64,000 nt of DNA from Clostridia bacterium. GTDB taxonomy: Bacteria; Bacillota; Clostridia; Christensenellales; CAAEEZ01. Below the pieces are notes generated by a model that did not search any database, was not told the DNA's origin, and was given only the letters and a program-made list of their open reading frames with translations. This document shows, in pieces, positions 35,898-56,047 of the stretch. Each line of letters opens with the position of its first letter. Position 1 is the first letter of the stretch. The DNA lies in NCBI GenBank assembly GCA_900755035.1, contig CAAEEZ010000016.1, positions 172,873 to 236,872 on the forward strand, written 5' to 3'. Position numbers and translations under genes: made by a program.

Positions 35898-36060
35898 TTT
35901 ATAGCGTTTAAGGTTGCGTATATTGACAATATCGTTGCATGCCTACCTATAATATGATATAATTATGATCATCTAATATTCTATATAAAATCGGTGAGGT
36001 TGTAAAAGGCCTTAAATGTAGAAATTCTATTTGTACATTAAACTCAAAGGAGCACGAATT

Positions 36061-37977: not shown

Positions 37978-37979
37978 TT

Positions 37980-40642: not shown

Positions 40643-42160
40643 CTATTGTAAAAAAACAAAACGCACTCCTAAATATTTGGAAGTGCGTTTTATCTTTGGT
40701 GCCCCAAGGCATTTCAAATCCGAACCAGACGGGGTGCAGTTGAGTTCCGAAAGGAATACTGTTTTTGTTCCGTCCTTGTAGTTGAAGGTAAAGGTTATCT
40801 TATCATCGTAAAGGTATATTGCATTGATAAATCCATCGATTAGCCTTTGTTTACCTTCTTTTGTTGAAATATTCAACTTTTTAAATTTCTCTATTCCAAA
40901 GCGTATTTGCTCTTTCGTAAGAAAGGGTTTTTTAATTTGTTCTTGAACGATAGTTAAATCAAGTTGGTTCTTTTCTTTTTCAAGTTCCGCAAGTCTATCT
41001 TTCGTTGAGTCGAAGATAATCCCTTGCTCAATCGCTGTAATTATGTTTTTAATACGATTTTCAACGTCTTCTAATTGTAAACGCAATCTCGGTAAGCGCG
41101 GATTTTCTTCGCCCTGTAAATCGAAAATCCTATCCACAAGATAATCAATCACGGCTTCGTCGTGAAGAAGCTCCATTGCCTTTTGAACGGCTAAATCTTC
41201 AATCCACAACTTACGTACCGTTTTCTTATCGCAAGTATGCTTTTTAGCGTTTACGCATTTGTAATAGCGGTGGACTTCCTTTTTTCTTCCCGTTCCTGCT
41301 TCACCAACCATAAGCGCGCCACATTTACCGCAGAACAATTTTGTAGTTAAAAGATAATCATCTTCCGCTTTATGACGGGCGGGTGCGTGTTTATTTTGCG
41401 CCATACGACGTTGAACACGCTCAAATAAGTCTTTGCTAACGATAGCAGGCACGGCATCGGGAATTACAATGTCATTATATCTAAATTCGCCTATATACTT
41501 GCGGTTGGTAAGCATATATTGAACGATATTATAAGACATTTTCTTGCCAAGTCTTGTCGTTATTCCTTTTGCATTGAAATGGTTTACAATATCTTTGATA
41601 AGGTAGCCGTCGGCATACATTGTAAAGGCTTCCACAACGATAGGAGCAAGTGTTTGGGCAATAGCGTGTTTTTGTTCTTCGTCTATGTAGTAACCAAAAG
41701 GAATTTGTCCGCCGTTTACTTTCGCTTTTAATGCATTTTCTTTGAGCCCACGCTTAACCTTAACGGAAAGTTCAGCCGAGTAGTATTCCGCCATACCTTC
41801 AAGCATTGATTCAAGAATAATTCCTTCAGGACCTTCGCTAATGTTTTCCTTTGCCGAAACTACTTTAACGCCGTTCTTTTTAAGGATATGTTTGTAATTG
41901 GCAGAATCGTATCTATCACGAGAAAAACGGTCTAATTTCCAAACGATAATCATATTAAAGCAGTGCTTATAACTATCTTTAATCATACGTTGAAAATCGG
42001 GACGATTATCCGAAGTAGCCGTCATCGCACGGTCTATATAGTTTGCAACGACGTCCACACCGATTTTATTCGCAAATTCCAAACACTCACGAAGTTGACC
42101 TTCAATAGATTCTTCACGTTGACTATCCGAAGAATATCGCGCATATATAACTGCTTTCAT
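40643..42160 (-). CDS. Large serine recombinase
   Basis: 505 aa; N-terminal resolvase domain AVIYARYSSDSQ (catalytic Ser), recombinase domain, Cys-rich zinc-ribbon (CGKCG…YYKC…C). The last codons run through a hairpin/T-run at 40650-40691. Confidence 0.9.
   Translation of the reverse strand: MKAVIYARYSSDSQREESIEGQLRECLEFANKIGVDVVANYIDRAMTATSDNRPDFQRMIKDSYKHCFNMIIVWKLDRFSRDRYDSANYKHILKKNGVKVVSAKENISEGPEGIILESMLEGMAEYYSAELSVKVKRGLKENALKAKVNGGQIPFGYYIDEEQKHAIAQTLAPIVVEAFTMYADGYLIKDIVNHFNAKGITTRLGKKMSYNIVQYMLTNRKYIGEFRYNDIVIPDAVPAIVSKDLFERVQRRMAQNKHAPARHKAEDDYLLTTKLFCGKCGALMVGEAGTGRKKEVHRYYKCVNAKKHTCDKKTVRKLWIEDLAVQKAMELLHDEAVIDYLVDRIFDLQGEENPRLPRLRLQLEDVENRIKNIITAIEQGIIFDSTKDRLAELEKEKNQLDLTIVQEQIKKPFLTKEQIRFGIEKFKKLNISTKEGKQRLIDGFINAIYLYDDKITFTFNYKDGTKTVFLSELNCTPSGSDLKCLGAPKIKRTSKYLGVRFVFLQ
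40716..40727. repeat. Direct repeat copy L (aaatccgaacca)
   Basis: Exact 12-mer also present at 55108-55119, where it is the left arm of the hairpin downstream of tRNA-Leu. Confidence 0.5.
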
Positions 42161-43254
42161 TCAGTTTTCTCCTTTATTTTATATTTTACACTTAAATAAT
42201 TAGTAAAATTTTTATGCTCATTTAAGTTGTATTCGGCTTGTAATCGTTCATATACATTTCCTTTCATTATGTCATCAAAGGATATGCCCGCCATAGTTGT
42301 TTTTCCTGTAATCTCTTTTACTTTTTTATCTTTTTTAAGCACTTGTTTCAAAGTTTCAGAACAATAAAAATCTTCTGAATACAAGAAAATCAAATAGTTG
42401 ATTACAGATAATTTATCTTCGCGAGATAAGGCTTTGAACCCTTTATAAAACTTTCTATACCTTTTCTCATTATTGTCAATAAAAAGCATTATCGCCGTTT
42501 TATTTTTCAATGGAAAAACACAAATATATAAGTCTTTCATATGATAATTAGGGTCTTTATTATAAATGTCATTTACGATATTTCCGTCAAAATCAACATA
42601 TAAAGCAATTTGCCCTTGAAAAGCAATTGGAACGGTATAATCAAGTAAATCATAGTAAATTAAATAATATCCGTCATTGTAATTGCTTTTGATTTGTTTT
42701 TTTGCTTTGTTAAAATCCATTAAAAAATCTTTCAAATCAAGCGAATTGACTTCATTCATTTGCGTAAAGCGCGGAGCATCTTTAATTGCTTGCATCAATT
42801 TATATTGTTCTATTTCTACCTTTCGTTTATATATATATTTCAAATTGGATTTTAATGCAATAGCCGCTAAAATACTATGTGAAGGTGTAGCATTGTACAC
42901 GTCAGGATTTTCATATTCTTGAAAGATAGTATTATCACAATCTTTACAAATAATATGAAACGTCCCTGCATTGCCAACACCGCTATCTTCTTTCAGATAA
43001 AACGGAAACTCTATAATGCTATTTACCGTTAAGACCATTCCATCGCTATCTATGTTATGTAAACAAAAAGCGGGGATATTATGAGAGTTGCAAAATGATG
43101 TTACGGATTTTCCACAATACAGACAAGTAGTTCCTTTTGCATTATCACGGGCTTGTTTTATAAGCCTTGACATCTGTTTGTTTACTTCAATAGCATTACC
43201 ATTAAAATTTTTTGATATCCATTCGCTTGTTTTAGCTAAATTGTGTAATTCCAT
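42157..43254 (-). CDS. DUF4238-like protein with N-terminal CxxC…CxxC element
   Basis: 365 aa; CLYCGK…SHNIPAFCLHNI resembles the DUF4238 HY(V/I)PxFYLxNF signature; second pair CKDC; 4-nt overlap (ATGA) with the recombinase gene. Confidence 0.45.
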   Translation of the reverse strand: MELHNLAKTSEWISKNFNGNAIEVNKQMSRLIKQARDNAKGTTCLYCGKSVTSFCNSHNIPAFCLHNIDSDGMVLTVNSIIEFPFYLKEDSGVGNAGTFHIICKDCDNTIFQEYENPDVYNATPSHSILAAIALKSNLKYIYKRKVEIEQYKLMQAIKDAPRFTQMNEVNSLDLKDFLMDFNKAKKQIKSNYNDGYYLIYYDLLDYTVPIAFQGQIALYVDFDGNIVNDIYNKDPNYHMKDLYICVFPLKNKTAIMLFIDNNEKRYRKFYKGFKALSREDKLSVINYLIFLYSEDFYCSETLKQVLKKDKKVKEITGKTTMAGISFDDIMKGNVYERLQAEYNLNEHKNFTNYLSVKYKIKEKTE

Positions 43255-43270
43255 ATTATTTATCTCAAAT

Positions 43271-44020
43271 CTATATTGTTAAACTATACTTGTTGTATAA
43301 TTCGATGAATTGGTCTAAAAATTTACATACCAAATCTCTATCTAAAGCAGTTGATAAAGTTTCCTCGTTTCCTTCAGCATTTTTACTCCAATTATATGAG
43401 CCGTGCATTACATAATCAAAATCTATAATACAAAATTTGTTATGCATCCTATTTTTTCCCCACATTGGAACAGTGATAGTGTCAAATTTCTCTTCTAATT
43501 CAGGCAATCTCCATTTGTTAGATTCTTCGTCTGATGTTATAATTCGCACATTAACACCTGCATCTTTTTTTAATTCAAGTTCACGGATAATATCTTTATC
43601 AGTTATCCACGCAACTGCCGCCCAAATTATATATTTAGCACCTCTTATACCTTGAATAATTGTGTCTTTAATTTCATTAAAATCTACATCATATTCTTTA
43701 TAATCCCAATTTTCGGTTTCTATTGGCTTAGGCTTAATTTGTAATTCGCCAAAGGCATATTGCTCGCTTTCAATATATATGTCTTCAGCTAATCCGTTTA
43801 ATTGATTTTTATATTCTTTTGCATTCTTCAACATAGGGATGGGTACGCGCAAAGCAATATTTTCCCAAAATTGATAACTTTTTTTCGTGAAGTATGATGT
43901 TTTTTCAAAAGTGATAATAGAATTACGAAGGATAGTTAAAATTTCATCTTTATTAGGAAAATCCTCATATTTTACATACTCAATCATAGTTTTCAAGAAT
44001 TGCTTTTCATTGACTATCAT
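43271..44020 (-). CDS. PLD-superfamily (single HKD, Nuc-like) putative nuclease
   Basis: 249 aa; HNKFCIIDFDYVMHGSYNWSKNA matches H-x-K-x4-D-x6-GS-x-N; unassigned N-terminal domain of about 110 aa. Confidence 0.75.
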   Translation of the reverse strand: MIVNEKQFLKTMIEYVKYEDFPNKDEILTILRNSIITFEKTSYFTKKSYQFWENIALRVPIPMLKNAKEYKNQLNGLAEDIYIESEQYAFGELQIKPKPIETENWDYKEYDVDFNEIKDTIIQGIRGAKYIIWAAVAWITDKDIIRELELKKDAGVNVRIITSDEESNKWRLPELEEKFDTITVPMWGKNRMHNKFCIIDFDYVMHGSYNWSKNAEGNEETLSTALDRDLVCKFLDQFIELYNKYSLTI

Positions 44021-44376
44021 TACTTTTGTTCCTCCAACATTTTCTTTAAGGTTTCTTTGAGTTTTGCGTGTGCGTTAGTGCTTGGGTCAAAACACATCTC
44101 GATAAAGTCTTGCATACGGTCAGAATTTTCTAATTTAGGTTGTCCGTAAAGTTTACCTTCGGGGTTGTCCGTTCTACCGAGAAGATAATCCGCCGATACG
44201 TCAAAGTAATCGGCAATCTTAACAAGTACGGGGTAGGACGGCATAATAGAGCCAAGCTCGTAACGAGCGAGAACGGGTTGTTTTACGTCGCCAAGTGCCG
44301 TAGCAAGTTTTGCTTGTGATAACTTTGCTTTTTCTCTTAATGACTTTATTCTATATCCAATAATGTTTTCTTGCAT
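44020..44376 (-). CDS. XRE-family HTH transcriptional regulator
   Basis: 118 aa; …IKSLREKAKLSQAKLATALG…YELG… HTH_3 pattern; its stop codon overlaps the PLD gene start by 1 nt. Confidence 0.8.
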   Translation of the reverse strand: MQENIIGYRIKSLREKAKLSQAKLATALGDVKQPVLARYELGSIMPSYPVLVKIADYFDVSADYLLGRTDNPEGKLYGQPKLENSDRMQDFIEMCFDPSTNAHAKLKETLKKMLEEQK

Positions 44377-44403: not shown

Positions 44404-45414
44404 CTAACAGTATTTTCGTAAATCTTCTTCTTTTGCACCATAAACTTGTTTTGTTGACGCATTAAATAGTTTTTCATTGTAAGCATCAATAATAGCCGCA
44501 TCTCTAATTATAGTGGTCGTGTTTTCTTTTATGGAATTCTTACAGATAATTGAAAGTTGGGGGGTTATCGGATAAAATAATTCAAAATTATTTATAGTTT
44601 CTCCAATATTATTATAATCAGCGTAAAGATTAATTAATGGAAAATCGCTCGTTATGAAATTTTGCGTTGTTTCATTTTTTATTAAATCTATATAAAAATT
44701 ATTTTTACAAAAGGCAGAAGCTAATATTTGAGTATTAACAACCATCATTAAAGGAAACATTGCTAAAGTGGTATTTTTTAAGCACGAATCTTCAAATTTT
44801 TCAACAGTTTGCTTTATCGAATTCAAAATATTATCCTTACTTCTCCATGTTCTAAGCATTTGAGCTGCAATAAACTCAAAAAAATCATATCTTAAATCTT
44901 CGCCATTATATGTAGAAAGTGTTAAGTTATATAACGCTTTAATTTCCATATCAGAAAAAAGGCATTCATTTGAAAATAGATTATTAAGCATATTAAATTT
45001 TAAAAAATCTGAAAATTGTTCCAATACTGTTGGTCCTTCAAATGGAAATTCTCCTTTATATAATTTATTTAAAAATTTAATGCCATTATTTTCTATAGGA
45101 CATACAAAATTATTTTCGATAAAATCTTTTTGAAATATATCTGAAGCATCTGTTATTTTACTTTTGACTCCAATCAGTTTTTGATTATTCAGCCACTTAT
45201 CAAAATATTGAGTTACTGCCTTTTTATCGCTCTCGTTTATCATGCTAATATCATAACTATATTTTTGGACACCAACATTTTCAAGTGATACATTTTTTAT
45301 AATTTTATTTTCAGCTTTGTAATAACAAACAATATTTCCATTGCTAGAATCTAAATTATCTGTCCAAGGCGATAAATACTTTCTCCAAACTAAGTGTTGT
45401 CGTATTGTTGACAT
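44404..45414 (-). CDS. DUF4238-family protein
   Basis: 336 aa; N-terminal QHLVWRKYLSPW and later FITSDFPL resemble the DUF4238 signature blocks. Confidence 0.5.
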   Translation of the reverse strand: MSTIRQHLVWRKYLSPWTDNLDSSNGNIVCYYKAENKIIKNVSLENVGVQKYSYDISMINESDKKAVTQYFDKWLNNQKLIGVKSKITDASDIFQKDFIENNFVCPIENNGIKFLNKLYKGEFPFEGPTVLEQFSDFLKFNMLNNLFSNECLFSDMEIKALYNLTLSTYNGEDLRYDFFEFIAAQMLRTWRSKDNILNSIKQTVEKFEDSCLKNTTLAMFPLMMVVNTQILASAFCKNNFYIDLIKNETTQNFITSDFPLINLYADYNNIGETINNFELFYPITPQLSIICKNSIKENTTTIIRDAAIIDAYNEKLFNASTKQVYGAKEEDLRKYC

Positions 45415-45519: not shown

Positions 45520-45551
45520 TTAAAAACGGCAGATACTTTAATCTACCGTTT
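45520..45551 (-). terminator. Rho-independent terminator ending the Hsp70-like operon
   Basis: Minus strand aacggtaga/tctgccgtt stem (one G-U) followed by TTTTT, 10 nt after the stop. Confidence 0.65.
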
Positions 45552-45560
45552 CAATAAGAT

Positions 45561-47390
45561 TTATTTCCAATTTTTATCTTTGTAAGGAGTATCTTCTACA
45601 CCTTTATCATTGAGTTTTTTAACCATACGGTCTAATGTACCTTTCCACATTTTCTTAAACCATTTTGTTTTACCAAACCATTTTACAAGTGTAGGACTAA
45701 TCGCGTAATATAATTTGATAAAGGCACGACCATACCAAGTAGAGCCAAGAGTGTCATCACGGAAGCGACGTAACGTCCATACTTGCGGGCAATCATATGA
45801 GCCATAAACGCAAGTAGCAACATAACATCCACCACAACAATCGGAAGAACTAGAAGAATAACTTCTTGGATAAGAGTAGGAAGAACGTGATGCTGCTTTA
45901 TTTTTTGCATCTTCGAGTGTATCAGGATACGTTCTATGTGAACCACGTACAGCATCGCATTTTTCCATATAGGTTTTTGCGGTGTAAGAGTTAGCAGTCA
46001 ATAATTTATAAACTTCATCGAAGGTCTTAATGATTTCGCTTTGTAAAATCGTAAGTGCATAATATTTTAGAATATAATTTTTTAGCTCGTCTTGTCTTTT
46101 TTCTATAACGTATATTCCAAGTGCACCCATATTTGAAATGCTTGCGAGTTCTCGATTAAGATTTTCAAATAAGTTTTCAGTTACATTATCAAAACGGGTT
46201 AATGCGATAAGCAAATTAGTAAATAACGTGCGGTAATTTTTTAAACGTTCGGATTTGTAGAGTAAGCGCGTTAAATCATATAAATTTTGAGATACAGACG
46301 TTCCTTTTTTTATCGCAAGAATGCGTTCTCGGTAATAATTGTACCATTCTTCGCCGTTTTTTATTAAGGCGGAAAGTATTTCAAGTATTTCAATGTGTTC
46401 GCATTCGATATCGTTATCTTTAATATAGTCAATAACGCTCGAAACTGAACTCATTTTACTTAGCTCGTAATAAGTGTTTTTTTCAATGTTATCAAATAAT
46501 ATATAAGTAAAACACAGATTTATAAATACGGTACATAAGTGTTCAGCATCTTCGGGATGAAGTTTTTCTAAAAGTTTTGAAAAATTTGCAAAGAATAATG
46601 TGCCGTTTTCATCCACATTATTGGCTAATTGATTACAAAAAGCCTTATATGAATAATAGAACTCTTTATTTTTGAACAAAGAATTGTTTAATCCACAAAC
46701 AAACTCAATACTTGAAGTAAATAAACTTTCATCTTCCAATCTTGATGAAATCGAATCAAGAGAAGTAGCAATAGCATCGGCAAAAGCAGTAACAAATCTT
46801 TTTTTGAGAGAAGTATCCGTTGTCGCACTCAAAACCCTATAAGTCGCATTAACAGTTTTACTATTTAAGCCGTTTACAGACGAATTGATTTCATTTTCTA
46901 TCTCTAACCACAAAGATTCACAGAACGCAGAAAAGATTTCGCCGTTGGCATCCACTTTTGCATAGGTTAAATCTTTTTTCAGTAGCGCAGGAGTCACTAT
47001 CACACTTACAAGTTCATCAAAAACTTTACCGCTTATCTTCAATTTAGATATAGCATAATCAAAATTACGCACCAAATTAATTAATGCAGCTAGTTTCTTT
47101 CGGGAAGAAACTGATGAAGTTATTTCAGTATCAAATACGCTTTCTAATTGTTCAACAGATTTTCTATCTTGAACGTATTTTTCTACTGTATAGAAATCGA
47201 TATCTATGTAAGTCGAAAAAAGTTCTTCAACAAATAATTTTGCATCGCTATTTATTGTTTGAATATGAACCGGCAACTCTTTTCTCAATTCAGGACGAGT
47301 TTGAAATAACTTCATTAACTCGCCTTTTGATAACGATGATGATAACTTAAACTTCTCGAAAAGAGTTTCTCTTTTGAATTGTACTTCCAT
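45561..47390 (-). CDS. 609-aa helical protein with Ser-rich linker and Cys-rich C-terminal module (operon gene 3)
   Basis: No catalytic motif seen; the C-terminal 93 aa read DCCGGCYVATCVYGSYDCPQVWTLRRFRD…GRAFIKLYYAISPTLV… followed by a basic amphipathic tail. Confidence 0.6.
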   Translation of the reverse strand: MEVQFKRETLFEKFKLSSSLSKGELMKLFQTRPELRKELPVHIQTINSDAKLFVEELFSTYIDIDFYTVEKYVQDRKSVEQLESVFDTEITSSVSSRKKLAALINLVRNFDYAISKLKISGKVFDELVSVIVTPALLKKDLTYAKVDANGEIFSAFCESLWLEIENEINSSVNGLNSKTVNATYRVLSATTDTSLKKRFVTAFADAIATSLDSISSRLEDESLFTSSIEFVCGLNNSLFKNKEFYYSYKAFCNQLANNVDENGTLFFANFSKLLEKLHPEDAEHLCTVFINLCFTYILFDNIEKNTYYELSKMSSVSSVIDYIKDNDIECEHIEILEILSALIKNGEEWYNYYRERILAIKKGTSVSQNLYDLTRLLYKSERLKNYRTLFTNLLIALTRFDNVTENLFENLNRELASISNMGALGIYVIEKRQDELKNYILKYYALTILQSEIIKTFDEVYKLLTANSYTAKTYMEKCDAVRGSHRTYPDTLEDAKNKAASRSSYSYPRSYSSSSSDCCGGCYVATCVYGSYDCPQVWTLRRFRDDTLGSTWYGRAFIKLYYAISPTLVKWFGKTKWFKKMWKGTLDRMVKKLNDKGVEDTPYKDKNWK

Positions 47391-48247
47391 TATTTCTCTT
47401 TAACTTCCTTTTTATTGGGGTGTACGTTTATAGTAATTTTTGCTCTTTGGATAATAAGGCTATGATAACGTATTTCCGGTTGAAAAACTTTTACAACTTG
47501 ACCATTGGGTTTCTTTTTATCCTCGATTGTATCCACGGCACCAAAAACTTTCTTTTCTTCATCTGTTAAATCATTATAATTTAACCCTAAATAGTTAGGG
47601 ATATTCATTTCGTTTCTTAATAAAAACTCAATAAATATCTTCTCGTAGAAAAATTTTATTTGTTCAAATATCGGACTTTTATTCTTTTGCTGTTGCACTT
47701 TACAATAAATGTCATATATTTGGTTCGCAAAATCTTTTAATTGTGCGGTTATTTTAATTCTTTCTTCTTGTTTTGCATTTGCTAATTTTTCAACAGAAGG
47801 AAGAAAAGTATTCCCCTCAAATACTATTTTTCTAGAAAAATCTTTTAACGAAATACTTTCAGGCGAATCAATTAATTTTACTGTCCATCTATCACTATTT
47901 TCTTGAAGATAATTTTCTGCTTTAACATTAAAATCTTCGTCTTTTAAAAGAAATAAAATATATAAACGCAAATGTTGAGCATCTACGTCTTTAGGATAAT
48001 ATTCCAAAAACGATATTATTTTTTCATAAGCAGTTACAACTTTGTTTTCCTCTAATAATGTAATGGCCTCATTGTAATTGTTAAAGCGTGAAAAATAAAC
48101 GCTTTCAAATTCCTTTAATGAATAACGGCAATATTTACATTCCGTAGAATTTATGTTGTTATCCGTCCCACATAATGGACATTTATATAGCGTATAGTCG
48201 TTTTTTCGACTAATTGCTTGCGCAGAAAAATATTCAAACTGTCCCAT
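47390..48247 (-). CDS. Zinc-ribbon / helical-repeat protein with GrpE-like C-terminal domain (operon gene 2)
   Basis: 285 aa; CPLCG…CKYC ribbon; C-terminus …PNGQVVKVFQPEIRYHSLIIQRAKITI parallels the GrpE beta-domain (…V-x-QKGY-x-L-x-x-R-x-I-R-x-A-x-V-x-V); its stop overlaps the start of gene 3 (45561-47390) by 1 nt and the gene 1 stop overlaps its own start by 1 nt. Confidence 0.55.
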   Translation of the reverse strand: MGQFEYFSAQAISRKNDYTLYKCPLCGTDNNINSTECKYCRYSLKEFESVYFSRFNNYNEAITLLEENKVVTAYEKIISFLEYYPKDVDAQHLRLYILFLLKDEDFNVKAENYLQENSDRWTVKLIDSPESISLKDFSRKIVFEGNTFLPSVEKLANAKQEERIKITAQLKDFANQIYDIYCKVQQQKNKSPIFEQIKFFYEKIFIEFLLRNEMNIPNYLGLNYNDLTDEEKKVFGAVDTIEDKKKPNGQVVKVFQPEIRYHSLIIQRAKITINVHPNKKEVKEK

Positions 48248-51201
48248 TAGTCTTTGCTCACTCTTCCTTGGAATTTCTTAACTTTATCGCTAATTTCTTT
48301 AATGCCCGTTTGTTCAAGCAACATCATAAGACGTCTTGATTTTTGGATTGCGCGTTCAGCGATATCGTTATATTCGTCGTCCGTTTTTTCTTCAATATTC
48401 TTTATATCTAACGAGTTAAGGAATATAGTTACGTTTTCTATTTCTTGAGAAATAGAATTACGCAAAGAGTAATCGCTTAAAGTAGGAAGAATGCCTTGTG
48501 CATCAGTTATCAAATCGTAAATATGTTTCAAGCATATTGCCATCCAAGTTTTAGGATTTGATTTTATGTTCAAGATAGCTTTCATTCCTAACATATCTTG
48601 ATATCTTTCTTCAGCTTGTTTATAATCTTTTCTACTTAAAGCTCTTTTACCAAAGAACGCGTCGTCTTCAATTTTTGATATGTTAATATCGTCTTGTTGC
48701 GAAGCTAAATCTTTTAATTCTCGTTCTAACTCATCAAAATCTTCTTCAGTTAAGTCGCTAATACTGCTTGGAAGTTCACGAACAAGTGTCTCATACTTAT
48801 TAAGCGCATCCGTATAGTGGTTTTTATCGGAGTTAGCAACGGCTTCATTGAGCTCACGAGTGATATTTTCTTGCCTTGCAACAAATTCGGCTTTTGCTTC
48901 ACCGCGAACGTTTTCAATTTTATCGTAGAATTTTTCTTCAATATCCATAAGGGTGGAGTCATCTATATCTTTTGTTTCTGCATAAACGACTTTACCCTTA
49001 ATTTCTTTATTATTAAGCAATACTTTTAAGGTAACTTTTCCTAATACGTCAATTTCGGTGTTTACAGTTACTCGACTACCGAGTGGAGTATTTTCAGGCA
49101 CGTCTATAATAAGACTATAAATTTCACGATAACCTTCTTTAACGGGGAGAATAATTTGTTCTCGGCTATATTCGTTAATTTTAAAGTTGTGGCTTGCCGA
49201 ACAAGGGAGCGCCTCACCTTTATTTACTAACGGATAATCTTCCGTTTCTTGTCTTTCCAAGTCAACAATTTCTATACGGATGGTTTCGTTTTGGACAGGA
49301 GTAGGCGCAATTAAATTATTTTTTTCTACCGACTCCGTTAAGTTTGCTACCGTATTATTTCCAAAATAGAATTTATATTCTAATTTTTCATACACACCAT
49401 CAATGTCGGCAGAGAAGGTTCCGTCGCCTTGAACCGTTGCTTTAACTTCTTTTTCGTTAGAAATTAATCCAACTGTGTCAACTTGTCCTTTAATAAGTTT
49501 GCCCGATATGTTCATTGTTCCGTCAAACATATAAGGAGCATTGATTTCAACCACAATACCATTTTCCGTATCTTCAAATTTCATAGATTGAGTAGCGGCA
49601 ACGATACCTGCACCGTATCCAACTGCCAAGTCGGGGTCTGCTATAATCAACTCTTTAATCATTCCGCTATCAACAAATTTTTCTTTAACAGCGTTGCGAA
49701 CGTAAGGGATATGGCTTGAGCCACCAACCATTAAAACTCCCGTAATTTCAGAAAGTTGTCTGCCGCTTGCAACAAAAGCATCCAATGCTTTTTGGCATTC
49801 GTTAAAACTGTCAATTACGATTTTATCACGGATAAGTTCTTCAAATTTTGCTCTTGAAAAGTCTTCAATAATAAGGTCAACACCCGAATTGTCTTTGAAC
49901 ACATCGTAATAACTAATAGTATAGGTATCGTTTTGCGAAAGATTTTTCTTAACATTTTCAGCGGCAAGGAGAAGTGCATTATATTTATGTAAATCTTCTT
50001 TTTTAGTTAAATCTAAATCAATATCATATCCCAAATCGTTATTAAGAACATCAATAAAGTAGCGAGCGAGAAGATTATCGAAGTTATCTCCTCCCAAAAA
50101 GTTGTTGCCGGCAGTAGCCAAAACAACGGGTATGTTTTCTATTTTTTCGATAATAGAAACGTCAAACGTGCCACCGCCTAAATCGTAAACCATAAATACA
50201 CCGCTATTCACGTTGTTTTTAACGGTGTAATTTATAGCCGCTGCAGTCGGTTCTTCCAAAAGCATTAAAACTTCTAAACCTGCAAGTTCGCCCGCTTTGC
50301 GTGTAGCATCTTTTTGAGCGATAGAGAAGTAAGCGGGCACGGTAATAACGATTCTATCATACACAACATTTTCAGCTTTTTCCACTTGCTTGTTAAGTAT
50401 TTCCGCACAATATCTTACGATTTCGGCAGAGATTTCTTCAGGAGAATAGTTTTGACCATTCAAAACGGCGGGTTCTTCTTTACCCATCATTCTTTTGATT
50501 GAACGAATTTTTTCAATATGCGGATTGTTTTTAGGCGCAACACCCACTATAAATTTATCGCCTTTCTTAGCGACTAACGACGGAATCGTTTTAAGTTTTC
50601 CGTCTTCGGGACAAAAACTTGCACCGTTAATAAAAACTGAAGGTGTACTGTTTGTTGTTCCTAAATCAAGACCGAACGTTTTGTGAATAATCATTTTATT
50701 TATCTCCTTGTTTTGTTCTTCTAATGGTTTGTTTACTGCGGTATTTATTGCGACGGCTTTACTTTCACAACTTTCACCGATAATTTCTTCAATTTTAGTT
50801 ATAATTAGTTCATCATCATTATTTGGATAACTGCCGTAATTATAATGGGCTTTGTCATCCCAGCTACATAAAGCAATTTGATTTTGTCCTATTGTATATT
50901 CTGCGGTGAAATAATAATTTTGTTCTTTTACTAAAATTATTATATAGGCGCAGTCTGTAATAGAGATAGGCATAGTGGACGTCGTAAATCTATATTTTAG
51001 GGCGTTTAGATTTCCTACCTTAATAAATTCAATTTTATATGAAACAAAATCTGATAGATGCGCTTTTTCAATGGCGGTATCAATAATTTGCGTTGCACCA
51101 AAATTGTTTTTACCTTCGATAATACGGCTTAATAAATCTGAATCATAATTCAACACCATATTTCTTAATAATATGTGTTGAAAATTGTAATAGGCTCTCA
51201 T
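48247..51201 (-). CDS. Hsp70/DnaK-superfamily ATPase with unassigned 169-aa N-terminal domain (operon gene 1)
   Basis: 984 aa; GLDLGTTNS, VITVPAYFS, VYDLGGGTFDVS, MVGGSSHIPY motifs, then a beta-rich SBD-like region and a long helical C-terminus. Confidence 0.85.
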   Translation of the reverse strand: MRAYYNFQHILLRNMVLNYDSDLLSRIIEGKNNFGATQIIDTAIEKAHLSDFVSYKIEFIKVGNLNALKYRFTTSTMPISITDCAYIIILVKEQNYYFTAEYTIGQNQIALCSWDDKAHYNYGSYPNNDDELIITKIEEIIGESCESKAVAINTAVNKPLEEQNKEINKMIIHKTFGLDLGTTNSTPSVFINGASFCPEDGKLKTIPSLVAKKGDKFIVGVAPKNNPHIEKIRSIKRMMGKEEPAVLNGQNYSPEEISAEIVRYCAEILNKQVEKAENVVYDRIVITVPAYFSIAQKDATRKAGELAGLEVLMLLEEPTAAAINYTVKNNVNSGVFMVYDLGGGTFDVSIIEKIENIPVVLATAGNNFLGGDNFDNLLARYFIDVLNNDLGYDIDLDLTKKEDLHKYNALLLAAENVKKNLSQNDTYTISYYDVFKDNSGVDLIIEDFSRAKFEELIRDKIVIDSFNECQKALDAFVASGRQLSEITGVLMVGGSSHIPYVRNAVKEKFVDSGMIKELIIADPDLAVGYGAGIVAATQSMKFEDTENGIVVEINAPYMFDGTMNISGKLIKGQVDTVGLISNEKEVKATVQGDGTFSADIDGVYEKLEYKFYFGNNTVANLTESVEKNNLIAPTPVQNETIRIEIVDLERQETEDYPLVNKGEALPCSASHNFKINEYSREQIILPVKEGYREIYSLIIDVPENTPLGSRVTVNTEIDVLGKVTLKVLLNNKEIKGKVVYAETKDIDDSTLMDIEEKFYDKIENVRGEAKAEFVARQENITRELNEAVANSDKNHYTDALNKYETLVRELPSSISDLTEEDFDELERELKDLASQQDDINISKIEDDAFFGKRALSRKDYKQAEERYQDMLGMKAILNIKSNPKTWMAICLKHIYDLITDAQGILPTLSDYSLRNSISQEIENVTIFLNSLDIKNIEEKTDDEYNDIAERAIQKSRRLMMLLEQTGIKEISDKVKKFQGRVSKD

Positions 51202-51242
51202 TTGTTGTAATCTCCTGAAATTTTTCCTTTTGTTTTTACATT

Positions 51243-51254
51243 GAATTATCTAAT
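51243..51254. repeat. Inverted repeat, left arm (gaattatctaat)
   Basis: Perfect reverse complement of 51422-51433. Confidence 0.6.
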
Positions 51255-51267
51255 ACGTGTACTATAG

Positions 51268-51293
51268 AAAGATCTTTTACATCTATAGATGTA
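51268..51293. promoter_or_regulatory. Adjacent perfect palindromes (operator-like)
   Basis: AAAGATCTTT (51268-51277) is immediately followed by TACATCTATAGATGTA (51278-51293). Confidence 0.4.
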
Positions 51294-51319
51294 TCTAATG
51301 TACGCCTATATGTTTTCGA

Positions 51320-51348
51320 TTGACTAAATCGTAAAAAAGATGTATAAT
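51320..51348 (+). promoter_or_regulatory. Near-consensus sigma-A promoter inside the IR-flanked segment, facing away from the Hsp70-like operon
   Basis: TTGACT (51320-51325), 17-nt spacer, TATAAT (51343-51348) on the plus strand. Confidence 0.55.
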
Positions 51349-51421
51349 ATTATCAGTATTTTTCAAGAAAAAAAGGATTTTGACAATTTTTATCGTATAT
51401 TAAATATAGAGAAGTTCATAG

Positions 51422-51433
51422 ATTAGATAATTC
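51422..51433. repeat. Inverted repeat, right arm (attagataattc)
   Basis: Reverse complement of 51243-51254. Confidence 0.6.
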
Positions 51434-51439
51434 TATGTA

Positions 51440-51470
51440 GAAAAAGTGGCGAGCACGAAACTCGCCACTT
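51440..51470. terminator. Terminator hairpin after the tyrosine recombinase gene (potentially bidirectional)
   Basis: agtggcgag/ctcgccact stem flanked by A5 on one side and T4 on the other. Confidence 0.65.
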
Positions 51471-51479
51471 TTACCATTT

Positions 51480-52391
51480 TTAGAACAAAAACTTACCAAC
51501 GCGGTTCATCATTTCCGTCTTGTGTTCAAGCATAGAGTGAGCGTAGCGTTTTAAGGTTATCGTAGGGTTTTTGTGCCCTAAAATTTCCGATAGCGTTTTA
51601 ATATCCATTCCGCACTCTAAAGCGCGCGTTGCAAACGTATGACGAAGAGAGTGAAAGCCTTTATGCGGTAATTTCAAACGTTTTAATAATAGTTCGAAAC
51701 TCTTTTGATAAGAGCGAACCTGCGCACCATGTACGCGTTCACTACAAACAACGTAGTTTCCGCTTGACGATTTCTTATACTCTCTTAATCGTGAAAGCAG
51801 TTGCTTGGGTAAAGGAATAACACGTTCTGAAAAGTCCGTTTTTGGCGTGTCTATAACCTTAACGTATTTACCGTTTTCCCAACTATCGTGGCAAGATTTA
51901 GAAACAGTTATAATACCTTTTTGTAAATCTACGTCATCCCACGTAAGAGATAGAAGTTCGCCAATACGTAAGCCCGTGTAAAGACAAAGTACCACGCCGA
52001 ACAATTTATTTTTCTTCTTTTCAAAGATATATTGCTCGATTTTTCGTTGCTCTTCTTTAGAAAAACAATCAACTTGCTTTTCACGCTGTTTAGGACGCAC
52101 AATAGCCATTGTAAACTCTTTGTCCGTTACGCCAAGTAATACTGCTCGGCGCAAAGAAGATTTAAGCACGGATATAATGCCGTTTACGGTGTTTGCAGAT
52201 AGACCTTTTTCAGATAAATCCACAGTAAAACGTTGCAAAACGGTTGCCGTTAAATCGTTAAGTTCAAACTCTCCAAGCGCGGGGAGTATATGTAGTTCTA
52301 TTTGCCTTTTATATTTCTTGTACGTTCTAATTTTCGTAGTGGGCTTGACGTACAAAGCAAGCCACTCGTTTAACCAATTTTTATATTTCAA
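51480..52391 (-). CDS. Tyrosine site-specific recombinase (phage-integrase family)
   Basis: 303 aa; core-binding SAM-like N-domain, catalytic Arg (TGLRIGEL), HSLRHTF, LGH, RYAH(S) Tyr; TTG start after ggagg. Confidence 0.9.
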   Translation of the reverse strand: MKYKNWLNEWLALYVKPTTKIRTYKKYKRQIELHILPALGEFELNDLTATVLQRFTVDLSEKGLSANTVNGIISVLKSSLRRAVLLGVTDKEFTMAIVRPKQREKQVDCFSKEEQRKIEQYIFEKKKNKLFGVVLCLYTGLRIGELLSLTWDDVDLQKGIITVSKSCHDSWENGKYVKVIDTPKTDFSERVIPLPKQLLSRLREYKKSSSGNYVVCSERVHGAQVRSYQKSFELLLKRLKLPHKGFHSLRHTFATRALECGMDIKTLSEILGHKNPTITLKRYAHSMLEHKTEMMNRVGKFLF

Positions 52392-52769: not shown

Positions 52770-53930
52770 TTATTTGCTCCAAGTATATTCGGAGCGATTT
52801 TCTTTTGTTTGTTCCGTTTGTTCTTGCCGCTTTTCTTTTTCGATTTCCTGCTCGATCTCCCTTAATCGATTACGCGACAGGAGAACGGGCGCGGCGAAAA
52901 GGTCTATGAACGATTGCATTGCCGACGTCGCTTTGAAGAACGTTCTTGCATACGCTTCCGGCTCGTGTTGCCTGACCGCGAGCATAGCGTTCTTGGCAAC
53001 TTCCACTTTCCTCTCAAATCCTTTTGCCTTTTGACATTCTTTGAATAAGTCTCCGTTATCTTTGGCGAGTACTGCGTTCTCGTTTTCAAGCCGCTTGTTC
53101 TCAATGGTCAGAGCGATTACTTGTTCTTTCAATCCTCTTTTGCCGTGGGCAACGTCGCCGTTCTTGGCTTCTTCTAACGCTTGACTGTAATCCGCTTCTT
53201 TGTCTCGCTCAGCAATGATTCTGTCCCTTTCCTTGCGCGCTTGCTCCGTCTGTCGGATCGTCCTGTCAAGATATTCTCTTGCCGTAGCGTTGGCTTCTTT
53301 TAAGTCCTCGTTTTCGGCTCGCGCATCGTCGGTGGCTTGCTTTACGACTTTGTGATAGGTTTTCGGATCGACATGCTTGGCTGTGCTTCCGACTTTACCC
53401 CGTGACAAATTCCACTTCTTACCGACTTCTTCATATACGGCGGTTTGCAATTCCGCTAATTTCCCGTCAAAGTAGTATTTAGCACTCAATCGGTTGTCGG
53501 GGGTGATCGGTACGAAGTTGATATGCAGGTGCGGCGTTGTTTCGTCCTTGTGGACAACGGCGGAGATGATGTTTTCTTCGCCGTATCTCTTCTTGACGAA
53601 GTTCACGCAGTCGGCAAAGAAAGCACGTTCGACTTCCAACGGCATACTGTCGAAGAAATCTTTGTCCGACGTCATCACGAACGATACCATCTTGATCGCG
53701 TCGTCTTTGACTTTCCGTTTCACGCCTGCTTGCCTGATCCGTTGGTTGATAAACTCCGCATAGCCTTTTTCGGGCGGTGGGATCATGTGATAGTTATTCT
53801 TTGTGCGGCTCGTGTCAATCGTTTCCTTTCCGATGCGGACGTAGCCCTCTTGACGTTCGTTCTCCAAAGCGACTTTTACAATATCGCCTTGCGGATATTT
53901 TTTCATGTTCAGCACGATATAAGATATAAT
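52770..53930 (-). CDS. MobV-family (Pre/Mob) relaxase
   Basis: VVHKDETTPHLHINFVPI is the HxDE…PHxH motif. The N-terminus (I)ISYIVLNMKKY parallels MobV MSYxVxRxxK. An AGGAGG sits 5-8 nt upstream of ATT/ATA codons at 53930/53927, so a non-ATG start is likely; the alternative ATG is at 53906. Confidence 0.8.
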   Translation of the reverse strand: MISYIVLNMKKYPQGDIVKVALENERQEGYVRIGKETIDTSRTKNNYHMIPPPEKGYAEFINQRIRQAGVKRKVKDDAIKMVSFVMTSDKDFFDSMPLEVERAFFADCVNFVKKRYGEENIISAVVHKDETTPHLHINFVPITPDNRLSAKYYFDGKLAELQTAVYEEVGKKWNLSRGKVGSTAKHVDPKTYHKVVKQATDDARAENEDLKEANATAREYLDRTIRQTEQARKERDRIIAERDKEADYSQALEEAKNGDVAHGKRGLKEQVIALTIENKRLENENAVLAKDNGDLFKECQKAKGFERKVEVAKNAMLAVRQHEPEAYARTFFKATSAMQSFIDLFAAPVLLSRNRLREIEQEIEKEKRQEQTEQTKENRSEYTWSK

Positions 53931-53963
53931 GGTTTCCTCCTGTAAATTTCGTTTTTTTGTTGC

Positions 53964-54072
53964 GCGAAATAGGTGTGTAGAAACAGTCATCCCGACTTTG
54001 TTCGGTGGACAAAAAGCCTCGCAGAGCCTACGACCAAACAACGTTTGGTGTAGTAGGCTACACCTATTTCGC
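53964..54072. promoter_or_regulatory. Candidate oriT region (13-bp inverted repeat with GTGTGT)
   Basis: gcgaaataggtgt (53964-53976) and acacctatttcgc (54060-54072) are perfect complements. GTGTGT lies next to the left arm, just upstream of the relaxase start. Confidence 0.4.
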
Positions 54073-54230
54073 TTCATCTCGTTTTGCTTGCAATTTGCTT
54101 TCCAAATAGGTCATTTTGCAATCACTTCCACAAGCGTTTAACGACCGCTTGCAAGTCATCCTACAATCATATCAATCACCGTCCTTGTTATATTTGTCCC
54201 TTCACGTAAAAGGGCTGTTTTCCACAGACA

Positions 54231-55158: not shown

Positions 55159-55244
55159 TGGTGCGGATAACAGGACTTGAACCTGCACGACCTAGGGTCA
55201 TAAGATCCTGAATCTTACGCGTCTGCCTATTCCGCCATATCCGC
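55159..55244 (-). tRNA. tRNA-Leu (anticodon CAG)
   Basis: 86 nt; acceptor GCGGATA/TATCCGC, anticodon loop TTCAGGA, long variable arm (class II), T-loop GGTTCAAGTCC, encoded CCA. Confidence 0.9.
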
Positions 55245-55385: not shown

Positions 55386-56047
55386 ATGAATTGGTATGAA
55401 ATTGCGTTAATTGTTTTGGTAGTGTTAGTTGCGATAGTTGTTGTGGCGCTTGGCTTGACGGCTAAGGAAAGAAAGCGTAAAAAAGAGATTGCGAAAGCGA
55501 AAATGGAAAGTGGCAGTAAAGGGGAAGAAGTTACTGCCGACGTGTTGCAGGCGCTACAAGGCAAAAACTATTTGCTTAACGGATTGATAATAGAGTATTT
55601 GCCCGGAAAAACTAGCGAGATGGACCACGTTTTGGTTCGCAGGAACGGAGTATTTTGTATAGAAACGAAAGCGTGGGGTGGAAGGATTACGGGGAGTGAT
55701 AAGGACGAGTTTTGGCTAAGGCAAAGGGGCGGAAGTTTTGAAAAAATGAAAAACCCGTTAGTGCAGAACGCAGGACACGTGAGAACTCTTAAAAGGGTGC
55801 TTGGCGAACAAAATATAAAGTGCAAGATAGTACCCGTAATAGTGTTTGGAAAAATAATGCGGGTAGCGTGGACTGTGGAAACGTTGTAAACCTAAGAGAT
55901 TTAGATAGGTGGATAGCCGGGTACGACGACGGGACGTGCTACTCAAAACGCAAAATGAAAAAAATATATAAAACGTTAAAAAAGGCGTCGGGAAAAGTTA
56001 GCCACGCAAGGCACGTGAAAAATGTAAGGCGTAACGATAAAAAATAG
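55386..56047 (+). pseudogene. NERD-domain protein, split by an apparent 1-nt frameshift at an A5 run
   Basis: N-terminal TM plus NERD core (…MDHVLVRRNGVFCIETKAW…). The reading frame continues naturally (…IVFGK|NNAGSVDCGNVVNLRDLDRWI…) in the -1 frame after the A-run at 55850-55854. Confidence 0.65.

Follow-up and report, generated by a model that had tools for sequence, protein, structure and literature searches.

We analysed a 64,000-nucleotide (nt) stretch of a Clostridia bacterium genome (GenBank assembly GCA_900755035.1, contig CAAEEZ010000016.1, positions 172,873 to 236,872; hereafter the window), in which three consecutive minus-strand genes code for a long Hsp70-type chaperone (gene 1), a co-chaperone-like protein (gene 2) and a helical partner protein (gene 3). 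This triad very probably is a conserved operon that combines an Hsp70, a protein resembling a nucleotide-exchange factor (NEF) and a membrane partner. A preliminary description, made from the DNA letters alone, had singled out the locus as a candidate for an undescribed system, and its account of the layout was accurate. The three open reading frames (ORFs) have exactly the coordinates, lengths and strand that it listed (Table 1). At the gene 1/2 and gene 2/3 junctions the sequence TAATG makes each stop codon overlap the next start codon by 1 nt, in agreement with the proposed translational coupling, and gene 1 has AGGAGA as ribosome-binding site. The predicted terminator behind gene 3 is a hairpin of -16.4 kcal/mol (z = -6.05) that none of 200 shuffled sequences matched in stability. 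Directly past it lies a perfect TTGACA-17-TATAAT promoter (12/12 consensus positions) that serves the next gene. Since gene 3 is followed by a terminator and the next gene has its own promoter, the triad is its own transcription unit. The region is AT-rich, as had been noted, with a GC content of 30-35% compared to 37-41% in the flanks.

Judged from its sequence, gene 1 codes for an Hsp70 that is competent for ATPase activity and has a substrate-binding domain. Its central part matches Pfam HSP70 (PF00012) at 6.9e-65 with 219.8 bits (cutoff 20.6), and the nucleotide-binding domain aligns with that of DnaK in the PDB at 2e-52. In a family alignment of relatives at 43-75% identity (A4), the catalytic residues D178, K235, E316, D339, T344 and D346 are invariant, and the motifs DLGTTNS, VITVPAYF, DLGGGTFDVS and GGS are unchanged, so the Hsp70 motifs are as intact as first described. 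The nucleotide-binding domain is followed by a DnaK-like hydrophobic linker (IVVEINAPY; compare VLLLDVTPL), a beta-rich module inserted at approximately residues 553-625, the substrate-binding beta domain and a long C-terminal helical region; the latter two features had also been recognised correctly. In the homologue P0064, the Pfam HSP70 match reaches position 482 of the 599 profile positions and thus spans the substrate-binding beta domain. Compared with the curated models of known classes, gene 1 scores low. It reaches 225.6 bits against the DnaK equivalog (TIGR02350 / NF001413, cutoff 822.55) and 211.5 bits against the HscA equivalog (TIGR01991, cutoff 708.55), in both cases through the nucleotide-binding domain only. 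The same domain accounts for the sole PHROGs match within the triad, which is to a family of unknown function.

The two ends of gene 1 set it apart further. The N-terminal 169 residues, for which the preliminary description had no assignment, gave no match in a Pfam search. Relatives carry unrelated N-terminal extensions (P0064, P0071, P0074) or none, as in the 821-aa forms, and a Pfam search of these other extensions was negative as well. The extreme C-terminus reads F-x-G-R-V-S-K-D-COOH. This tail, in the general form [FY]xG[RL][VIL]SK[DAG]-COOH, is present in every triad-type relative (P0062-P0109) and missing from the distant long Hsp70s P0110-P0120.

Gene 2 belongs to a tiny family: a profile search of 1.84 billion representative proteins returned 37 representatives of clusters at 50% identity, some 25 of them full-length. 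The protein starts with a CxxC...CxxC zinc ribbon, the four cysteines of which are the sole invariant columns among 22 family sequences. An AlphaFold (AF2) model has a mean predicted local distance difference test score (pLDDT) of 64, with values around 90 in a helical block that resembles TPR repeats. In a Foldseek comparison with the PDB, this protein found TPR domains only, none of them significant (for example 1na3, TMt 0.70); these matches include the Hsp70/Hsp90 co-chaperones Hip, CHIP and RPAP3. The zinc ribbon and helical repeats of the preliminary description are therefore well founded. In the C-terminal half, the model contains a 35-residue helix (151-185), further helices and four strands (237-273) at a pLDDT of 36-55. 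At this low confidence, the order of predicted elements would fit that of GrpE, which has a long dimerising helix, a four-helix bundle and a beta domain.

This C-terminal half had been said to resemble the beta domain of GrpE. Pfam GrpE (PF01025) matches residues 232-273 of gene 2 with 13.1 bits (E 0.08), below the cutoff of 25.8 bits, and several other family members also match below threshold, the best with E 0.003. We compared the 22-sequence family by hhalign with a GrpE profile built from 12 sequences (E. coli, ten diverse plasmid or chromid copies and one archaeal locus). The alignment covers 71 columns with a score of 43.1, a probability of 73% and E 3e-5, and it places gene 2 residues 201-279 on residues 127-197 of E. 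coli GrpE, which form the last bundle helix and the beta domain. Controls scored far lower: the reversed alignment reached 15.3, and none of 40 shuffles of the columns in the C-terminal region exceeded 14.5. When gene 2 was aligned with the E. coli GrpE sequence alone, the match was non-significant and the register unchanged. The gene 2 family profile recovered no bona fide GrpE from the 1.84 billion proteins.

Independent backing for the GrpE-like reading comes from a distant locus (L007, Hsp70 33% identical), where the two halves of gene 2 are encoded as separate genes flanking the Hsp70. One of these genes codes for a 152-aa zinc ribbon and TPR protein that aligns with gene 2 by hhalign at a probability of 95% (E 1.8e-8). 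The other encodes a 258-aa protein with weak similarity to the gene 2 C-terminus (E 0.002) and to GrpE (E 0.006). The archaeal locus L009 has two paralogous long Hsp70s, preceded by a gene that matches Pfam GrpE weakly. In both split arrangements (L007:7238-13383 and L009:4755-14238), the GrpE-like gene lies upstream and the zinc ribbon and TPR gene downstream. The presence of a GrpE-like C-terminal domain in gene 2 is supported at the level of sequence profiles.

The AF2 model of gene 3 (pLDDT 79) shows an all-helical alpha-solenoid over residues 1-500, followed by a Ser-rich linker, in line with the earlier reading of the sequence. Searches with this fold against the PDB and viral models returned no significant relative. 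The best-conserved part of the family is an N-terminal motif, LFEKF..L..SK.EL..LFQT.P..RK[ED]LP....KLF.EELF, in which F, Q, P, R, K, L, P and ELF are invariant. Residues 2-62 are 46% identical to the homologue in L001, and the remainder of the two proteins is barely alignable. This motif is a candidate docking site for the Hsp70 or for gene 2. A J-like domain was also considered here, given a resemblance by eye to J-domain helices I-III with RK[ED]LP in the place of HPD. This idea was rejected: hhalign against an 8-sequence J-domain profile gave a probability of 1.7% (E 0.03, 27 columns), and the sole HP[DE] in gene 3 is not conserved in the family. Pfam DnaJ matched none of the three triad proteins even at E values up to 5, so the operon lacks a detectable J domain, as first stated.

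The Cys-rich C-terminal module of the preliminary description corresponds to a named domain, CFI-box-CTERM (NF041770), which matches at 4e-21 with 74.6 bits (curated cutoff 40) over all 69 profile positions. Homologues of gene 3 retain the solenoid and exchange this terminal module. The partners P0139-P0144 and those in L004 and L020 end in three transmembrane helices, a Ser-rich linker and Flg_new domains (Listeria-Bacteroides repeats) predicted to be extracellular. The L001 homologue ends in a zinc ribbon and a tail-anchor transmembrane helix, the L003 homologue in TPR repeats and a transmembrane helix, and the L007 partner in two C-terminal transmembrane helices. In a hydropathy scan, transmembrane helices were found in the partners of L001, L003, L004, L020 and L007, and the CFI-box stands at this position in the window and in L017. 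The predicted feature common to the family would be a solenoid that lies in the cytoplasm and has a membrane tether, and analogy with these homologues makes it probable that the CFI-box serves in membrane association. Our preferred reading of gene 3 is that of a membrane-directed partner. A literature search on the CFI-box returned nothing. The same domain also ends unrelated small proteins on conjugative proteobacterial plasmids (L052:4821-5745 and L053:1559-2140); one of them adjoins a PD-(D/E)XK nuclease gene near recT/ssb, and the other, a cold-shock-domain fusion, adjoins a Lar anti-restriction gene.

Outside this genome, too, the three genes are found together as a conserved unit. They occur in the same order in metagenome-assembled genomes (MAGs) of Christensenellales, Lachnospiraceae, other Clostridia and unclassified Bacillota, as well as in human-gut, rumen and digester assemblies. 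The unit persists down to approximately 43% identity in the Hsp70 and 26% in gene 2, and in Bacillota only. It is also rare. Only five triad loci were found among 185,579 species representatives, and a DNA-pattern scan of metagenomes returned two true triad loci and three chance matches. A tblastn search with gene 2 found no match in 50,697 phage or 72,556 plasmid records; the gene 3 motif was not found in IMG/VR, and gene 3 matches in plasmids are due to the CFI-box only.

The identities between loci are mosaic. Compared to the window, L039 is 85% identical in gene 1 and 99% in genes 2 and 3, and L012 is 91, 68 and 45% identical in genes 1, 2 and 3. Such mosaic values (L039, L012 and L041 versus the window) imply recombination between gene 1 and genes 2/3. 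The partner gene 3 can also be lost, since L005 keeps genes 1 and 2 only; in this locus (L005:4841-7938), a gene for a type IV secretion system (T4SS) coupling protein directly follows gene 2.

Between gene 1 and the adjacent tyrosine recombinase lies a feature that the preliminary description had missed, a segment bounded by inverted repeats with the crossover core GAATTATCTAAT/ATTAGATAATTC. It contains a sigma-70-type promoter that in the window copy is directed away from the triad, so that this copy is predicted to be in the OFF orientation; weaker promoter-like sites directed at the operon are also present in the window. We compared the orientation of the segment among contigs with identical Hsp70 proteins. 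Among contigs that share P0027, six have the window orientation (L044, L045, L047-L050) and two the inverted one (L046, L051). The corresponding counts for P0057 are two (L055, L056) and one (L054). Two more distant sets, P0062 at 75% and P0064 at 58% identity, also occur in both forms (L004 and L005 against L006; L017 and L018 against L019). The L044 and L046 contigs are identical outside the repeats and differ by a clean crossover in the core GAATTATCTAAT/ATTAGATAATTC. The P0062 and P0064 sets show the same kind of inversion with other repeat sequences. Analogous repeats are present in L004, L017 and L020; L020 has perfect 20-nt inverted repeats at the equivalent position. The segment of L039 has the window orientation, and that of L012 is inverted relative to both flanks. 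In the inverted forms L046 and L012, the promoter is directed at gene 1. Since four sub-families each contain both orientations among contigs with identical Hsp70s, we identify the segment, at the level of sequence, as a promoter inverton, and we are highly confident that the triad is under its control. A literature search found no promoter inverton regulating an Hsp70 machine.

The presumed invertase is a Xer-like tyrosine recombinase that falls under every NCBIfam cutoff. A recombinase of this type, approximately 300 residues long, lies directly upstream of the triad on the same strand in every close-family locus. The preliminary description had listed this gene as one of the recombinases of the island. 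It is indeed present as such, and its presumed tie to the triad through the inverton would give it a part in the control of the operon. In L012 (L012:1300-1570, JAAYHP010000636.1), which has the inverted orientation, a 117-bp deletion corresponding to window 51445-51561 removes the recombinase C-terminus with the catalytic Tyr, the recombinase terminator and the outer inverted repeat. Given these losses, the locus looks like a locked-ON allele, or else an artefact of MAG assembly. Four contigs (L048, L049, L051 and L056) end 218-424 nt upstream of gene 1, at or just past the inverton; such ends are typical of assembly at mixed-orientation regions, which is suggestive only. Phase variation of the triad suggests that its expression is costly.

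DNA comparison of related loci separates a shared backbone from variable cargo. The backbone consists of a MobV relaxase gene, a 61-aa ORF, the Xer-like recombinase, the inverton, the triad, a helix-turn-helix (HTH) gene and a serine recombinase. The HTH gene directly follows gene 3 in L039, L013, L041, L044, L047-L049 and L054-L056. One variable slot is filled by the DUF4238 gene in the window copy only and lacks it in L039. A second slot contains the PLD nuclease and a 365-aa ORF in the window (42157-44020), a Thg1-like gene and a SIR2 protein matching the ThsA and LmuA models in L039 (L039:9136-11225), and nothing in L013 and L041. As the cargo changes around it, the triad belongs to the element backbone. 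The element is a small mobilisable integrative element carrying defence cargo. The Type III restriction-modification (R-M) system, PLD nuclease and recombinases named in the preliminary description do flank the triad. Its picture of a mobile island with defence genes holds, with the correction that the PLD nuclease and DUF4238 genes are cargo and the triad is not. Likewise, the locus departs as claimed from the hrcA-grpE-dnaK-dnaJ arrangement by its mobile context, gene order and partners. At the right edge of the island, a tRNA-Leu(CAG) gene and a NERD-domain gene adjoin a core Na/Pi cotransporter gene and mark a likely integration site. A predicted surface protein encoded outside the island shares the Flg_new repeat type with some gene 3 homologues.

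Neighbourhoods of other triads and of more distant Hsp70s differ from that of the window. Type III or IIG R-M genes occur near triad loci, and the triads of L003-L005 adjoin genes for T4SS coupling proteins or relaxases. In L001 (6709-7989; also in L002), a gene for an IetA-like AAA ATPase (PADLOC IetA, 6e-36) ends 11 nt before the Hsp70 gene; together with the 821-aa-type triad it may form a four-gene variant. The distant long Hsp70 of L007 is accompanied by kinases and a STAND/ClpB-like ATPase, near JAB and ThiF genes, and its terminal partner is a 688-aa protein with two transmembrane helices. In L009, the terminal partners are a 462-aa protein and a CHAT-FGE-sulfatase protein (CHAT protease).

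Table 1. Features of the triad locus and its surroundings in the window.
Feature	Position	Strand	Basis or description
Gene 1, Hsp70, 984 aa	48247-51201	minus	ORF
Gene 1 N-terminal domain, residues 1-169	50695-51201	minus	no family match
Gene 1 nucleotide-binding domain, residues 174-543	49573-50682	minus	Pfam, NCBIfam, PDB matches, alignment
Gene 1 substrate-binding beta domain, ~residues 630-745	48967-49314	minus	sequence pattern, block conservation in A4
Gene 1 C-terminal helical region, ~240 residues, with conserved tail	48250-48966	minus	A4
Gene 2, co-chaperone-like, 285 aa	47390-48247	minus	ORF
Gene 2 zinc ribbon (residues 22-39) and TPR-like block (56-126)	47870-48193	minus
Gene 2 GrpE-like region: long helix (151-185), helices, C-terminal beta domain (237-273)	47411-47797	minus
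Gene 3, helical partner, 609 aa	45561-47390	minus	ORF
Gene 3 N-terminal motif, ~60 aa	47211-47390	minus	best-conserved part of family
Gene 3 CFI-box-CTERM domain, residues 522-590	45621-45827	minus	NCBIfam NF041770
Intrinsic terminator of triad operon	45520-45551	minus	hairpin, then T-run
Promoter inverton	51233-51443	.	31-nt inverted repeats 51233-51263 / 51413-51443 around ~180-bp segment
Promoter in inverton, TTGACT-17-TATAAT	51320-51348	+	11/12 sigma-70-type consensus match
Terminator hairpin of recombinase	51442-51472
Xer-like tyrosine recombinase, presumed invertase	51480-52391	minus	Pfam Phage_integrase and SAM_3
Type III R-M	36031-40565
Large serine recombinase	40643-42160
PLD nuclease	43271-44020
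HTH_3 regulator	44020-44376	minus	Pfam; backbone gene adjoining triad in related elements
DUF4238 gene	44404-45414
MobV relaxase	52770-54077
tRNA-Leu(CAG)	55159-55244
NERD-domain gene	55386-55889
Core Na/Pi cotransporter gene	56198-57865
Predicted surface protein, 1471 aa, Flg_new and MBG repeats	58493-62908

How might such a triad work? We propose that gene 2 would serve as a dedicated nucleotide-exchange factor for gene 1. By analogy with the TPR co-chaperones that bind EEVD, its TPR domain may dock on the conserved tail of the Hsp70. The Hsp70 in turn could bind or remodel the membrane-tethered gene 3 through the N-terminal motif of the latter. ATP-driven cycling would either hold gene 3 inactive at the membrane or release it. 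In this scheme a disturbance, for instance foreign or unfolded proteins, would be detected by the Hsp70, and the response would be carried out or passed on by the membrane partner. Specificity or effector function may lie at the two ends that vary in the family, the N-domain of gene 1 and the C-terminal module of gene 3. The most likely role would be that of a conflict module, in defence against phages or mobile elements or in exclusion; phage defence, abortive infection and element maintenance, the roles suggested in the preliminary description, are hypothetical.

The best explanation overall, to which we give an even chance of being right, sees the triad as a self-contained Hsp70 machine under phase-variable control that resides in the backbone of a mobilisable element and has a role in conflict or defence. 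Taken by itself, the defence or conflict function falls just short of an even likelihood. In its most far-reaching form, the proposal is that of a fourth prokaryotic Hsp70 class, with a dedicated zinc-ribbon/TPR/GrpE-like exchange factor and a J-less membrane partner, that would act as a phase-variable immune or exclusion switch of a mobile element; the chaperone cycle would itself do the sensing and set the threshold, and the membrane partner would deliver the output. This form is tentative and on balance doubtful. For a conflict role we count the rarity and patchy distribution of the family, its mosaic identities and the domain swaps at both protein ends, along with the changing defence cargo beside the triad, the IetA-like ATPase in L001, the CHAT, kinase and STAND-like neighbours of distant relatives, and the phase variation.

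Several observations weigh against this explanation. No family of PADLOC-DB v2 matches genes 1-3, the relative P0077 or the L003 partner; the distant relative P0113 has one weak PADLOC match (PDC-M61B, E 1.8e-5). Gene 3 contains no recognisable toxic or enzymatic effector domain. The neighbourhood evidence for defence comes from about a dozen loci, and a triad that is fixed in the backbone while defence cargo varies fits element maintenance or transfer equally well. The inverton promoter was assigned by consensus match alone, the recombinase is linked to the inverton by adjacency alone, and the TPR-tail and Hsp70-gene 3 contacts are pure inference. As to gene 2, the similarity to GrpE spans just some 75 residues and stays below the Pfam threshold, the AF2 model has low confidence over this region, HMM searches of PDB sequences returned zinc ribbons and TPR repeats with no GrpE, and Foldseek of the model against the PDB found no GrpE. 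The GrpE resemblance claimed in the preliminary description thus holds for the profile-profile comparison and its controls, and not for Pfam or for the structure search.

The main alternative, which we consider unlikely, is that the triad serves the element itself, by aiding its establishment, maintenance or entry exclusion or by chaperoning transfer or membrane proteins during mobilisation. The fixed position between the Xer-like recombinase and the HTH/serine recombinase in all element relatives, with changing cargo, would fit such a function, and so would the T4SS coupling proteins and relaxases next to the triads of L003, L004 and L005; the extracellular Flg_new domains of partner variants could even mediate surface exclusion. 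However, the triads of L001 and L002 have no adjoining recombinase or transfer genes, and L005 has lost gene 3 with the rest intact. A transfer-essential gene is also not expected behind an ON/OFF promoter, which is OFF in most sampled contigs.

Invertible promoters classically govern surface structures, and we also considered a phase-variable envelope or surface module, in which the Hsp70/NEF pair would aid the insertion, folding or turnover of gene 3, and the exposure of gene 3 would be varied for evasion of phages or host immunity. This possibility appears quite improbable. It would account for the gene 3 homologues with three transmembrane helices, extracellular Ser-rich linkers and Listeria-Bacteroides repeats, and the host does encode other Flg_new surface proteins (Table 1). 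On the other hand, gene 3 of the window and of L017 has neither a transmembrane helix nor a signal peptide and ends in a cytoplasm-compatible CFI-box, and the conserved solenoid that forms the bulk of every partner is cytoplasmic. There is no known precedent for a dedicated 984-aa Hsp70 and NEF serving one surface protein.

We give little credence to an addiction module of the toxin-antitoxin-chaperone (TAC) kind, in which gene 3 would be a latent membrane toxin that is kept in check by the Hsp70/NEF pair and stabilises the element. A promoter that can switch the whole operon OFF conflicts with post-segregational killing, gene 3 is large and mostly conserved solenoid, and searches of Pfam, PADLOC and NCBIfam detected no toxin or antitoxin domain, even though the tight translational coupling and the location on a mobile element would suit such a module, and chaperone-dependent antitoxin systems exist (TAC; bioRxiv 10.1101/2024.02.24.581848). 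Finally, an ordinary additional stress chaperone, that is, an acquired DnaK/GrpE paralogue pair with gene 3 as an unrelated passenger, is very unlikely: the nucleotide-binding domain does have DnaK as its closest match, and dnaK-grpE-dnaJ sets do occur on plasmids, but the DnaK and HscA equivalog scores are far under the cutoffs (225 vs 822 bits), the operon lacks a J protein, gene order, coupling and strict co-occurrence with genes 2/3 are kept across relatives at 43% identity, and the additional domains, the special tail with its conservation and the control by an inverton speak against this reading as well.

If the preferred reading of a phase-variable Hsp70 machine with a conflict role is true, a chaperone-based module joins the repertoire of mobile-element conflict systems, and the question arises how an Hsp70 cycle is driven and targeted without a J protein. 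The inverton supplies natural locked-ON and locked-OFF alleles as an experimental handle, and gut metagenomes allow its ON/OFF ratio to be determined and compared with exposure to phages or plasmids. The triad would add a rare and coherent Hsp70 type to DnaK, HscA and HscC as listed in a survey of prokaryotic Hsp70s (PMC8215388). The distinctive set comprises a predicted fused exchange factor, a tail paired with a TPR-like domain, reminiscent in bacteria of the EEVD-TPR pairing, and a J-less membrane partner.

The triad has two things in common with the DnaK-GrpE-DnaJ system. One is an Hsp70 that has the full set of catalytic residues in its nucleotide-binding domain, together with a hydrophobic linker and a substrate-binding beta domain; the other is a partner that has a GrpE-like C-terminal helix and beta domain. 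It differs by the length of its Hsp70 (984 residues), with the extra N-domain, inserted beta module, long helical C-terminus and special tail, and also by the score far under the DnaK cutoff. It further lacks a J protein, has another gene order and lies in a mobile context under phase-variable control. In eukaryotes, the TPR co-chaperones Hop, CHIP and Hip dock on the EEVD tail of Hsp70. The triad shares with this pairing a conserved motif at the extreme Hsp70 C-terminus and a TPR-like co-chaperone domain, by analogy only, since the tail is G-[RL]-[VIL]-S-K-[DAG] instead of EEVD. The switch resembles promoter invertons of gut bacteria and fimS-type switches in its repeat-bounded promoter segment, its small tyrosine recombinase and the occurrence of both orientations in nature; in contrast to these, the cargo is an Hsp70 machine, and the recombinase is Xer-like and under curated family cutoffs.

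Three types of Hsp70, DnaK, HscA and HscC, are distinguished in prokaryotes (PMC8215388). HscC proteins have 550-580 residues, deletions in the nucleotide-binding domain and no NEF, and their partners DjlB and DjlC contain bona fide J domains (PMC8215388). With HscC-DjlB/DjlC of E. coli the triad shares the features of a specialised, non-essential Hsp70 with a dedicated membrane-anchored partner and proposed membrane clients, as described for HscC (PMC8215388); it differs by its long Hsp70, its GrpE-like partner and a partner with no detectable J domain. In Firmicutes and Actinobacteria, Hsp70 and GrpE have been recruited into predicted conflict systems centred on a GAP1-N2 GTPase, in some cases along with partners fused to TPR or DnaJ (Kaur et al. 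2020, PMC7159879). These systems are defined by the GAP1-N2 GTPase and FNIII-repeat proteins, neither of which was matched in a Pfam search of the triad and its neighbours. CnuD of type III CoCoNuT systems (PMC11090510) likewise combines an Hsp70-like unit for nucleotide and substrate binding with helical, HEAT-like repeats and a predicted role in defence. In contrast to the intact motifs of gene 1, CnuD has degenerate Walker-like motifs, and it is tied to McrB/McrC (DUF2357) and HEPN genes, whereas no McrB, McrC DUF2357 or HEPN domains occur near the triad. The triad is also distinct from EACC1-protease-DnaK fusions.

A literature search found nothing on this Hsp70 triad. The earlier statement that no described system is built on it therefore holds for this architecture and not for the wider theme, as conflict systems with Hsp70 and GrpE are known (PMC7159879; CnuD, PMC11090510). 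Because these described systems have other partners, the novelty is limited to the architecture found here. As far as the sequences indicate, the triad would work like an Hsp70/NEF machine that is neither DnaK, HscA nor HscC by curated scores or by architecture, and as such it looks like an undescribed type of bacterial Hsp70 system.

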